Origin: a virus
Lineage: Duplodnaviria; Heunggongvirae; Uroviricota; Caudoviricetes
Direction: 5' to 3' (one strand)
Length of the DNA: 39,533 bases
IMG/VR virus record: IMGVR_UViG_2547132281_000008
Span: 1-39,533 of that record
Position numbers: made by a program. Positions 15,001 to 18,000 of this stretch are shown one piece after another. The number at the start of each line of letters is the position of its first letter. Position 1 is the first letter of the stretch.

Positions 15001-18000
15001 ACGGTGAAGCCGTTGCGCAGCACCAGGACGCAGAAAGTCAGGAGGTCTGTAGATTTATGCGCTGTCCATGAATCGCCAACGCCCATATTGGCAGCACGAA
15101 TGCCGTCATAAGCAGTAAAGAAATGCTCTTCAAGAATGATGCTTTCGATATATTGAGGCGTAACTCGCGGAGCGGTTTTGCCTTTCTCAACGATTTCTTT
15201 TTCGATTTGCTGGTCGTTCATAATCTCACCTTAAAAAAATGCCCGGCGAACCGGGCGAACTGGAAGCAATGAGTTATGCCTTCCGTGGCTGTACGGGTTT
15301 ACAGCATGAAGTCATCGCAATGGCGTCCTGCTGTAAAAAGGGCGGTGATAGTCCTTCAAGGGAAACCATCACCGCCAAGCCCCTGGAACTTCTGGCATCA
15401 CGGTCCTTAGGCGTGATTCTGGCGTGGCATGCAGGATTCGAACCTGCGACCAACCGCTTAGAAGGCGGTTGCTCTGTCCAGCTGAGCTAATGCCACAACG
15501 CTGAGAGCACTTAGCCTGTTAAGGCGCCACACTTTGTCGCGGCTCCATAAATGCTCTCATCGTTGTACCCTCGTCTCTTCCGAGGCGTCACACCGAATCG
15601 CCGGGATGGTGAATCCCCGTGCGCGGAATAAAACCGCTCGACTTGCACATTCCGGCTACCTGGTTCGTTTGCCCGAGCAAGGGAGGGTGCCCCTTAAACG
15701 TATCCAGACCGCTATCGGCGCATGTGCCATACGCCGTACTGCTCAAAATAAAAGCTCACTCCACCTGTTCAATTTAACGACAAGCCAGTCAGGTTAATAA
15801 CTGGAATGAACCATTTGCTTACCCAAAAGGTAATAATTCGTGCGTTAAATGTCAACTATCTACGATAAATAAATCATATGTGGTTAAATTGGTAATAATT
15901 TAATTGCGTACGGAGTCATTGATATGTGCATGGGTAGCTCACCATCAGTGCCTGCAACACCAGAAGTTCAGGCAGCACCACAGGAGCAGGATGCTGCCGT
16001 TGTTGATGCCCGCGACGAAGAAACACGTCGCCGTCGCGCTGCTGCTGGTCGTAGTTCTACGCTGCTTACCGGTTCTCAGGGCGACACATCAACCGCTAAT
16101 ACCAGCGGTAAAACGCTGCTTGGTCAGTAACCGGAGTCATTGAAATGGCGGAAACAACTAAAGAGCGATTGAACAAACAGTTCGCACAACTTGAAAGCGA
16201 GCGTCAGTCGTTCGAGCCGCACTGGCGCGAGTTGAGTGATTACATCAACCCGCGTGGTTCCCGCTTTCTGACTTCTGAGGTCAACCGTAACGATCGACGC
16301 AATACACGCATTATTGATTCGACCGGGACTATGGCGGCGCGCACTCTCGCCAGCGGCATGATGTCAGGCATCACAAGCCCTGCGCGTCCGTGGTTTCGCC
16401 TGGCTACGCCAGATCCTGAAATGATGGATTATGGCCCTGTTAAGTTGTGGCTTGAGGCGGTGCAGAACCGCATGAACGATATGTTCAATAAGTCGAATCT
16501 CTATCAGTCGCTGCCGCAGTTATACGGAAGCCTCGGCACATACAGCACTGGTGCAATGGCAGTGCTGGAGGATGACGAGGACATCATTCGCACAATGCCA
16601 TTCCCGATAGGCAGTTACTACCTGGCTAACTCACCTCGTGGCAGTGTGGACACCTGTTTTCGCAAGTTCTCTATGACTGTTCGTCAGCTTGTTCAGGAGT
16701 TCGGGCTAAATAACGTCAGCGAATCCGTAAAAAGCATGTGGGAAAGCGGCACCTACGAGAAGTGGATTGAAGTGATGCATTCGGTTTACCCGAACATTGA
16801 CCGCGATACATCGAAGCTGGATAGCAAGAACAAGCCATTCAAATCGGTTTATTACGAGGTTGGCGGCGATAACGACAAGTTGTTGCGTGAGTCCGGATTC
16901 GATGAGTTTCCAATTATGGCTCCGCGCTGGGAAGTTAACGGCGAAGATGTTTATGGATCATCATGCCCGGGTATGCTGGCGCTTGGACCTGTTAAGGCAT
17001 TGCAGCTTCTCCAGAAGCGCAAGTCGCAGTTGATTGATAAAGCCACCAATCCGCCGATGGTTGCTCCGACTTCCCTCAAGAATCAGCGCGCCTCCCTTCT
17101 TCCTGGCGACATCACGTATATCGATCAGATTACTGGTCAGGATGGCTTCAGGCCTGCTTATCTGGTTAACCCCAGTACAGCAGATTTGGTGGCAGACATT
17201 CAGGACACTCGTCAAATCATTAACAGCGCCTACTTTGTCGATCTGTTCATGATGTTGCAGAACATCAATACCCGCTCTATGCCTGTTGAAGCGGTGATCG
17301 AAATGAAAGAAGAAAAACTTCTGATGTTGGGGCCGGTTCTGGAGCGTCTGAACGACGAATGTCTTAATCCTCTCATTGACCGCGCTTTCTCGATGATGGT
17401 GCGTAAAAACATGCTGCCGCCACCGCCTGACGCGATGGAAGGCATGCCCCTGAAGGTCGAATACATTTCCGTCATGGCTCAGGCGCAGAAGTCTATCGGC
17501 CTGTCCAGTCTGGCGTCCACGGTTAACTTCATTGGTCAACTTGCGCAAGCGAAACCAGAAGCTCTCGACAAACTCAACGTTGATCAGGCGATCGATGCAT
17601 TCGCTGATATGTCTGGAGTGTCTCCAACCGTCATTGTTCCGCAGGAACAGGTTGAGCAGGCTCGCCAGCAACGGGCACAGCAGCAACAGCAGCAACAAAT
17701 GATGGCGATGGGGATGGCGGCGGCACAGGGTGCCAAGACGCTAAGCGAAGCTAAAACTTCGGATCCGAGTGTTTTGTCAGCTATGGCGAATGCAGTTAGT
17801 GGTCAGGGTGGGCAATCACAATGACAGATTACGAAGACGATCAACTGAAAGAAGAAAACGCCCGTAAGCAACGTGACATGGCGCAGCGTGAAATTGATGA
17901 CATTCGCTTTGTCATGAGCAGTGAACAGGGGCGTCGCGTTGTCTGGTCTGTGCTGGAGAAAGGCCGGGTGTTTTCCGCTATCTCTCCGATGGATGCTATG

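Follow-up and report, generated by a model that had tools for sequence, protein, structure and literature searches.

The window, the whole 39,533-nucleotide stretch of DNA that was analysed, belongs to a phiV10/epsilon15-like podophage. The locus studied here lies downstream of the large terminase gene and contains the following features.

14775–15818: variable region ("island") between the large terminase gene and the conserved block
14865–15221, minus strand: ORF of the Gp49/Sf6-gp66 family, in the variable region
15420–15496, minus strand: tRNA-Arg(tct), in the variable region
15819–15923, plus strand: conserved leader/regulatory block 5′ of gp3, common to all 8 aligned genomes
15819–15833: palindrome TTACC-N5-GGTAA, inside the leader block
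15884–15903: inverted repeat TTAAATT-GGTAAT-AATTTAA, inside the leader block
15911–15926, plus strand: copy 1 of the repeat, the gp3 translation-initiation region CGGAGTCATTGATATG, ending in a genuine ATG
15924–16130, plus strand: gp3-like gene, 68 aa, homologue of epsilon15 gp3 and phiV10 p06, PHROG 831
16132–16147, plus strand: copy 2 of the repeat, the portal translation-initiation region CGGAGTCATTGAAATG, ending in a genuine ATG
16145–17824, plus strand: portal (head-to-tail connector) gene, 559 aa, PF12236 (E 1.6e-187), PHROG 332

The original prediction placed two near-identical translation-initiation regions 221 nt apart, one heading a 68-aa ORF and the other heading the portal gene, and both points are confirmed. 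The copies follow the consensus CGGAGTCATTGA(T/A)ATG and are identical at 15 of 16 positions. Specifically, copy 1 consists of a C, the Shine-Dalgarno sequence GGAG (15912–15915), the 8-nt spacer TCATTGAT (15916–15923) and the ATG at 15924, while copy 2 consists of a C, GGAG (16133–16136), the 8-nt spacer TCATTGAA (16137–16144) and the ATG at 16145. In both copies GGAG lies 8 nt ahead of the ATG, inside the 5–10 nt range of a Shine-Dalgarno sequence, and both start codons open a conserved coding sequence. Alignment shows that the similarity reaches past the Shine-Dalgarno sequence into the spacer and ends at 16 nt: on the 5′ side copy 1 is preceded by GCGTA and copy 2 by CAGTAAC, and past the two ATGs the codons are unrelated.

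As raw sequence the repeat is unremarkable, because the window holds 15 comparable same-strand 16-mer repeat loci with at most one mismatch, against 2–7 in mononucleotide shuffles. Its unusual feature is that the two copies stand in the same register at neighbouring start codons. When 87 candidate start sites were compared in register, the gp3/portal pair ranked first among 3,741 pairs, by a narrow margin (12/16 identities, followed by five pairs at 11/16). For the 12-mer UCAAUGACUCCG, neither a third copy nor a reverse-complement partner was found in the genome beyond chance, and matches with 2 mismatches number 4 against 3.0 expected.

The 68-aa ORF is a member of the epsilon15 gp3 family. 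It matches the PHROG 831 profile over its full length (residues 1–68, E 2.4e-36), ends in a TAA stop codon at 16128–16130, and occupies the position just 5′ of the portal gene that is kept in phiV10, epsilon15, Tyrion and SPN1S. Homologues of about 68 aa form 146 clusters at 90% identity, and the family as a whole, very widespread and lacking a Pfam entry, comprises 1,524 clusters at 50% identity. Conserved motifs include a nearly invariant N-terminal Met-Cys, present in 104 of 113 short representatives, many of which read MCFSSP or MCFSKPK, and a C-terminal GR.ST.LTG...KTLLGQ. The pN/pS ratio is 0.02–0.26 against diverged relatives, close relatives differ by zero non-synonymous changes, and among 79 alleles the variable columns fall 29/20/64 on the three codon positions. 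The ORF behaves as a translated gene: gp3 is genuine, and purifying selection on it is strong. With similarity that reaches into the spacer and an ORF of this kind, the repeat withstands the refutation set for it in the original prediction. A search of solved structures with the gp3 profile returned only spurious matches to Arg-rich ribosomal proteins, and gp3 goes unmentioned in the epsilon15 papers checked, structure papers included. A 79-aa ORF in an alternative frame (15904–16143), which begins just 5′ of copy 1 and ends within copy 2, is not a gene, because stop codons interrupt the frame in 7/7 relatives examined.

The gp3 and portal genes are closely joined. The gap between the gp3 stop and the portal start is 14 nt in the window, with copy 2 beginning 1 nt past the gp3 stop and the portal Shine-Dalgarno sequence 2 nt past it. 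Across the family the stop-to-start distance of the small gene and the portal gene ranges from −1 to 18 nt, and a portal homologue lies directly 3′ of the small gene in 17 of 22 distant loci, at junctions of −1 to +17 nt. Junctions in distant relatives read TAATG or TAAATG or span 1–3 nt, and the small gene there carries a GGGG run in its final codons. The stop and start codons overlap or are close in a conserved arrangement, and the pair is an old, family-wide trait and plausibly coupled.

We found no structure masking the portal start site, in single folds or in a consensus fold of the gp3–portal junction from 12 genomes. The copy 1 and copy 2 start sites fold with z-scores of −0.7 and −1.8, the latter with a minimum-free-energy frequency of 0.006. 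In the consensus fold the portal Shine-Dalgarno sequence is unpaired and the covariation term is 0.04. Over positions 14700–16300, a sigma-70 promoter scan gave zero hits, and Rfam reported only the tRNA plus a sub-threshold hit on the tRNA antisense strand.

Comparison with relatives shows that the repeat is confined to one lineage. Among 27 within-genome start-site pair types, the gp3 and portal spacers match at 7/8 positions in phiV10-type (113 loci) and Tyrion-type genomes, versus only 1–4/8, the chance level, in the 24 other pair types. The strongest evidence pointing to a non-random repeat is this comparative spacer identity. The repeat is likewise missing from four further prophage lineages recovered through gp3 homologues in Klebsiella, Escherichia and Enterobacter assemblies. 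A scan of IMG/VR with the portal protein returned 80 near-identical loci, informative for single-base variants only. A separate scan for more Tyrion-type portal start sites gave a single contig, equal in length to Tyrion. Natural single-base variants in the portal copy alone occur in L007, L050, L145 and L117.

The same comparison indicates the direction of copying. The spacer type (T/C)(C/T)ATTG(A/C)(T/A) recurs at gp3 in several lineages: the gp3 site is GGAGTTATTGAA in L127 and L179, GGAGCTATTGCT in epsilon15, and CGGAGTCATTGAA in L142, whose portal site, GGGACCGTC, is unrelated. In other genomes the portal spacers vary, and most of them are rich in G+C (TAGGCAGAG, CGCGCAGAG, TCTGAAGAG and others). 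Between the portal Shine-Dalgarno sequence and ATG, phiV10 and Tyrion have 8 nt, the same distance as at gp3, and the epsilon15 type has 9 nt. Since the TCATTGA-type spacer is native to gp3, the portal site is the derived copy, and this derived portal site is found only in phiV10-type and Tyrion-type genomes. The original prediction of a duplicated portal leader thus has the direction reversed. At position −2 the two phiV10 copies both have A and the two Tyrion copies both have T (P ~0.08 by our estimate), a co-variation that might reflect continuing homogenisation, or selection that keeps the copies identical, and not simple retention.

Taken together, these data favour, with a probability of roughly 0.6, a reading in which two neighbouring late genes each have an ordinary Shine-Dalgarno start site, the portal site having been copied from gp3 and then retained. 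In this scheme gp3, which is the first cistron after the conserved leader, carries the original start site. The portal spacer, normally fast-evolving and G+C-rich, would have given way to a copy of the gp3 spacer in an ancestor common to the head modules of the phiV10 and Tyrion types. We infer that the likely route was templated copying of a short tract, starting from the shared (A)CGGAG, for which patch conversion, a template switch, or a duplication with later deletion are candidates; the tract of 13 nt is short for classical homologous recombination, which counts against a copying event. Afterwards both sites would simply have been kept as working start sites. The expected consequence would be similar intrinsic initiation strength for the gp3 and portal cistrons, and ribosomes ending gp3 would be released straight onto the portal start site.

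Coincidence, in which two sites bearing GGAG and ATG drifted to the same 7–8 spacer bases in one lineage without copying, is unlikely but carries appreciable weight. Near-repeats of this length are common in the window, the pair tops the in-register ranking by a single step, and the portal spacer evolves fast. The portal spacers of L087 and L089 are also partly similar, that of L089 containing ATTG and that of L087, TCTGAAGAG, being one that could be a mutational intermediate. However, drift would have to account for a spacer match of 7/8 set against the 1–4/8 of the other within-genome pair types, for its falling on two genes that are adjacent, and for a portal Shine-Dalgarno sequence that moved by 1 nt and so reproduced the 8-nt gp3 spacing. 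We estimate that such a match would arise by chance at any one adjacent pair with a probability of ~1e-4 to 1e-3.

Still less probable is that the identity was selected for matched expression. Here gp3 would be a partner of the portal protein at 12:12, like T7 gp6.7, and the use of one and the same start site for both genes, along with the 14-nt junction, would be favoured for equalising and coupling synthesis. The persistence of the small gene directly 5′ of a homologous portal gene across short junctions in distant contigs, and the co-variation of position −2 between phiV10 and Tyrion, are consistent with this proposal. So is the Met-Cys start of the short representatives, often MCF.SPK like the MCFSPKIKTPK of T7 gp6.7, whose residues 2–15 bind the portal barrel in 12 copies (PMC11784390). 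The colinear profile–profile alignment to the gp6.7 family, described below, points the same way. However, homology to gp6.7 fails in Pfam and BLASTP and stays below confidence in hhalign, and the portal copy alone varies in the four loci listed above. In addition, start-site identity is not required, because in the 24 other pair types the two genes stay together although their spacers are unrelated.

The same observation divides the original proposal that the duplication couples portal translation to an upstream ORF. The gene pair is family-wide and plausibly coupled, but the repeat is not the coupling device, because the pair is equally present in the 24 pair types that lack it. Nor do the portal Shine-Dalgarno sequence, masked by no conserved structure, the missing third copy or the co-variation, which is not convincing, argue for such a device.

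Control of both cistrons by one trans-acting factor, a small RNA or a translational repressor acting on the 12-mer, is very improbable. The 12-mers are identical at the two start sites, and phiV10 and Tyrion spacers are identical at 13/16 positions against a pS of 0.56, above the conservation of synonymous sites. Against these points, the genome has neither a complementary sequence nor a third site beyond the number of two-mismatch matches expected, Rfam finds only the tRNA in the region, RNA structure is neither significant nor conserved, and most relatives lack the repeat; taken together, these results already weakly disfavour a shared cis-regulatory site.

Least credible of all is the original suggestion of a scar left by insertion of the island, through target-site or leader duplication: there is indeed an upstream variable region with a tRNA and an accessory gene, but the scar is refuted because copy 1 is part of a block that all the compared relatives conserve. 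The repeats bracket gp3 (15924–16130), an ancient gene and not duplicated material, and not the variable segment. Copy 1 forms the 3′ end of the ~105-nt leader block, whose core is invariant and whose edges vary, and lies ~90 nt from the variable region. Homology of the window to epsilon15 and Tyrion begins at about 15813–15819, and in the epsilon15 record IHF and repressor sites are marked at the position matching the block. phiV10, epsilon15, Tyrion and SPN1S carry different sequence in the variable region, while the leader block is present in 7/7 compared relatives regardless of that content; epsilon15, SPN1S and others retain the same gp3 leader behind different upstream sequence and have no repeat. 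Presence of the repeat tracks the portal lineage and not the content of the variable region.

The repeat is a lineage-specific quirk of ordinary start sites, neither a scar nor a special control device, and both of those ideas can be retired. With its similarity limited to one lineage, the repeat itself is of little importance. The 68-aa ORF, on the other hand, ought to count as a genuine gene under strong constraint, and the small gene and the portal gene are an ancient, tightly joined pair across a large podophage group.

The closest known systems are epsilon15 gp3–gp4 and phiV10 p06–p07 (genus Uetakevirus), which resemble the window in gene order, in the 207-nt small gene, in the 14-nt junction and in the leader. 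phiV10 is identical to the window at both start sites. In epsilon15, SPN1S and most relatives, unlike in the window, the two start sites share (A)CGGAG only, and the epsilon15 spacers are unrelated (CTATTGCT at gp3, TAGGCAGAG at the portal gene). Neither the phiV10 record nor the epsilon15 record carries a feature for the repeat. The ribosome-binding sites that compose it are ordinary ones in a phage group already sequenced and annotated.

The placement of the portal Shine-Dalgarno sequence just past the gp3 stop also recalls the translationally coupled cistrons of phage and bacterial operons, which work by termination-reinitiation or through a Shine-Dalgarno sequence in the upstream stop codon or just past it. 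Unlike structure-masked coupled cistrons, the portal gene of the window is served by a complete Shine-Dalgarno sequence of its own that lies in unstructured sequence, and coupling here is putative. The spacer repeat has no evident part in it.

The third comparison is with T7 gp6.7 (Pfam PF17570, PHROG 1391), a small core protein of 88 aa against the 68 aa of gp3. Both families open with Met-Cys and continue with an S-P-K...P motif, which in T7 is the segment that binds the portal barrel. A middle of low complexity, a basic GR(K/S)S stretch and a tail reading K(S/T)x(F/L)G come next, in an order that the two share; the invariant residues of the gp6.7 family are M1, C2, P5, K6 and P10. Both proteins are encoded upstream of a PF12236-type portal gene, although in T7 genes 6.7 and 8 are not neighbours, unlike gp3 and its portal gene. 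Searches with gp3 gave no hit in Pfam, PF17570 included, at E ≤ 10 and no hit to PHROG 1391, and BLASTP against T7 gp6.7 gave an E value of 2.0. With hhalign, gp3 and gp6.7 aligned at a probability of 7%, or of 39% over only 4 columns in another comparison, and a 105-sequence gp3 profile reached 29–38% over 65–67 colinear columns (P 3e-4 to 6e-4). The resemblance of the gp3 family to this portal-barrel-binding core protein is suggestive only. We regard it as rather doubtful that the family is the gp6.7 counterpart, its N-terminal loop lying one-to-one round the portal barrel and the converted portal start having been kept in the phiV10/Tyrion lineage for equal, coupled initiation that helps to supply both proteins in like numbers. 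If it is, gp3 would be worth seeking in portal/core cryo-EM maps of epsilon15-type phages, and correspondence to gp6.7 would make a function assignable to ~1,500 "hypothetical" protein clusters.

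Nucleotide comparison of positions 14700–16500 reveals a match to phiV10 with 98% identity over 90% of the length, and matches to epsilon15, Tyrion and SPN1S at greater distance. The window is the genome of a podophage resembling phiV10 and epsilon15 (genus Uetakevirus), with the following features around the portal gene.

12628–13302: small terminase gene
13299–14774: large terminase gene
14865–15221, minus strand: Gp49/Sf6-gp66 family ORF (PF13876, E = 1e-34), in the variable region
15420–15496, minus strand: tRNA-Arg(tct), in the variable region
15911–15926, plus strand: copy 1 of the repeat, CGGAGTCATTGATATG, the gp3 start site
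15924–16130, plus strand: gp3, a 68-aa ORF (PHROG 831)
16132–16147, plus strand: copy 2 of the repeat, CGGAGTCATTGAAATG, the portal start site
16145–17824, plus strand: portal gene (PF12236, E = 1.6e-187)
Downstream of the portal gene, in order: Bbp19-like gene, scaffold/protease-like gene, major capsid gene

The Gp49/Sf6 gene-66 family ORF has ~90% identical DNA in the unrelated phages Sf6, Huey and Klebsiella phiKp_30 (in Huey, the feature adjoining this DNA is annotated as an anti-CRISPR protein), and looks like a mobile accessory gene common to several phage groups. The phiV10 ORF PhiV10p04 (hypothetical protein; window 15239–15490, plus strand) overlaps the opposite-strand tRNA-Arg(tct), and this CDS is probably spurious, because its C-terminus, ...GFEPATNRLEGGCSVQLS, reads as a typical tRNA-gene translation. 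Elsewhere, an iteron-like 24-nt unit, CCCAAAAACGGGATGTTGAATGAT, forms 2.6 perfect tandem copies at 7883–7944, flanked by an 18-nt array (7846–7895) and a 12-nt array (7949–7977); these repeats (7846–7977), all within ORFs starting at 7541 and 7778, may be a replication origin.

The original prediction described a duplicated start region at ATG 15924 and ATG 16145, and the repeat is exactly as claimed. Each copy is composed of C, GGAG, an 8-nt spacer and ATG, with the starts of the two copies 221 nt apart, and alignment reveals no likeness outside those 16 nt, the upstream flanks and downstream codons being unrelated. With up to one mismatch allowed, 15 loci of 16-mers repeated on the same strand occur in the window, against 2–7 in shuffles, and the repeat as bare sequence is not beyond chance. 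Among 87 candidate start sites, each combining a Shine-Dalgarno (SD)-like motif and a start codon with an ORF no shorter than 45 aa, in-register comparison of the 3,741 pairs puts gp3/portal at the top with 12 of 16 identities, only one step ahead of five pairs at 11 of 16. The convincing evidence that the repeat exceeds chance is comparative, resting on sequences from different lineages. Specifically, when the gp3 and portal start sites of one genome are compared at positions −8 to −1, the two spacers match at 7 of 8 positions in phiV10-type (113 loci) and Tyrion-type genomes, but at only 1–4 of 8 in the 24 other pair types, and the repeat is absent in four further prophage lineages (Klebsiella, Escherichia, Enterobacter). 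Therefore, the repeat is genuine and non-random, yet restricted to a single lineage.

Across the loci compared (L-numbers), the gp3 spacer has a recognisable family form, reading TCATTGAT in phiV10, TCATTGTT in Tyrion, CTATTGCT in epsilon15, TTATTGAA in L127 and L179, TTAATGCT in L085, and CGGAGTCATTGAA in L142, where the portal site, GGGACCGTC, bears no relation to it. The portal spacers vary, and most of them are rich in G+C (TAGGCAGAG, CGCGCAGAG, CGCGGCAG, ACCTGAGAG, TCTGAAGAG and CGATTGCAG, among others), and the portal ATG lies 8 nt from its SD in phiV10 and Tyrion, the same distance as at gp3, and 9 nt in the epsilon15 type. The family form of the gp3 spacer, the variability of portal spacers and the 8-nt spacing together indicate that a gp3-like portal leader arose in the ancestor of the clade with portal N-terminus MAETTKERLN, whose portals are 93% identical within the clade and ~80% identical to others. 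The proposal that the portal leader was duplicated thus has the direction reversed, and the portal site is either a copy of the gp3 site or a convergence on it, specific to this lineage. The gp3 spacer could have been copied into the portal site by a short templated patch that started from the (A)CGGAG common to both sites or, by an alternative route, through duplication and then deletion, while drift of the portal spacer to a gp3-like form by chance is less likely. Near-identical gp3 N-termini (MCMGSSPSVPA.) are found in L142, L127, L179, L154 and the window, and these four loci have portals with other N-termini (MAGTNETIKE, MAETEKERLQ) and other start sites, so the gp3/portal junction, where the last gp3 codons are highly conserved, may be a mosaic recombination boundary.

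The reading of the repeat as an insertion scar of the variable region (14775–15818) is refuted by the layout of the compared genomes, in which copy 1 is the 3′ end of a leader block kept in all relatives compared, ~90 nt from the variable region, and the two copies bracket gp3 instead. Seven relatives differ in content between the large terminase gene and gp3, and a ~105-nt block directly upstream of the gp3 ATG (window 15819–15923) is common to all eight genomes compared. The 5′ end of the block is a palindrome, TTACC-N5-GGTAA, at a position matching annotated IHF and repressor sites in the epsilon15 record, and an inverted repeat, TTAAATT-GGTAAT-AATTTAA, lies at 15884–15903. Positions 15819–15910 probably serve the head-gene operon as its promoter and operator. 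This segment also holds TGTCAA, and the block contains GGTAATAATT twice, 62 nt apart; its conservation is far above that of gp3 synonymous sites.

The upstream ORF, predicted to be of low complexity, is so, yet its substitution pattern marks it as a real and strongly constrained gene. It is homologous to epsilon15 gp3 and phiV10 p06, matches PHROG 831 over its full length (E = 2.4e-36), and has no family in a Pfam search; in phiV10, epsilon15, Tyrion and SPN1S, the gene spans 207 nt and the portal gene begins after a gap of 14 nt. A search of 5.8 billion proteins yields 146 homologous clusters of ~68 aa, every one with a source name being labelled 'hypothetical', and profile comparison with 1.84 billion representatives of 50%-identity clusters yields 1,524 clusters at E ≤ 1e-3. 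Variable columns in 79 distinct 207-nt alleles number 29/20/64 at codon positions 1/2/3, and pN/pS is 0.02–0.26 against diverged relatives (pS 0.56 and pN 0.013 against Tyrion), with zero non-synonymous changes in close relatives. An alternative-frame ORF overlapping gp3 (15904–16143) is interrupted by stop codons in 7 of 7 relatives examined.

The evidence that the identity of the copies serves a purpose is weak. Both phiV10 copies have A at position −2, where both Tyrion copies have T; because the two phages differ at two positions in portal spacers and one in gp3 spacers, we estimate P ~0.08 for a coincident same-base change. A targeted scan for Tyrion-type contigs gave only one further contig, and natural variants in the portal copy alone are present in L007 (CATGGAA), L050 (CAGGAG), L145 (CTGGAG) and L117 (CGGGG). 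The genome contains no third copy or complementary sequence, Rfam matches only a tRNA in this region, predicted RNA structures at the start sites are not significant (z = −0.7 and −1.8), and a 12-genome consensus fold leaves the portal SD unpaired, with no covariation. Furthermore, identical start sites are dispensable, since many lineages carry unrelated spacers.

A coupling device, also proposed, finds no support in the repeat itself. Coupling of gp3 and the portal gene as neighbours is plausible and would be old; tying of portal translation to the upstream ORF is reasonable independently of the repeat. Scanning for a pattern of the conserved codons at the C-terminus (KTLLGQ followed by stop) retrieved ~120 viral contigs. 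In distant contigs, a small protein ending ...GR.STILTG...KTLLGQ is directly followed by a gene of ~550 aa, a clear homologue of the window's portal in 17 of 22 cases tested (E = 0 to 6e-55), across junctions of TAATG, TAAATG or 1–3 nt; CTGGGGCAG often stands just before these junctions and would provide an SD-like GGGG inside the upstream gene. In enterobacterial phages, a 9–18-nt spacer separates the two genes instead, and a dedicated SD-like motif immediately follows the stop codon. The homologous portals and tight junctions indicate that the small gene and the portal gene are an ancient, tightly joined pair, of which the duplicated spacer is a late, local embellishment. In loci with an abutting or overlapping portal start (L107, L119, L122, L150, L196, L199 and L205), the conserved Leu-Gly-Gln codons are usually CTG GGG CAG, placing an SD-like GGGG within the upstream gene; in enterobacterial lineages with an intergenic SD, the same glycine is GGT or GGC. 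This suggests that glycine codon choice is shaped by downstream initiation.

The original observation is confirmed, the feature being two ordinary ribosome-binding sites of a phage group already known and annotated, and the sole part meriting more work is what the gp3 family may do. An N-terminal Met-Cys is present in 104 of 113 short representatives, many reading MCFSSP.., MCFSKPK.. or MCGFSKPK.., and the C-terminus reads KTLLG[QAGS] (proteins P0190–P0332). The cysteine, strongly conserved without a signal peptide, could be a modification site or contact point. T7 gp6.7 likewise starts with Met-Cys (MCFSPKIKTPK; its family keeps M1, C2, P5, K6 and P10 without exception), and twelve copies of its residues 2–15 encircle the exterior of the portal barrel, bridging to core proteins (PMC11784390). 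BLASTP between gp3 and gp6.7 gives E = 2.0, with no Pfam or PHROG cross-match, and profile-profile comparison gives a probability of 7%, of 39% in another run over 4 columns only, and of 29–38% over 65–67 colinear columns with a 105-sequence profile (P = 3e-4 to 6e-4). The likeness is suggestive, a lead and not membership; if true, a 1:1 partnership of gp3 with the portal, as for T7 gp6.7, would provide a rationale for tight co-expression.
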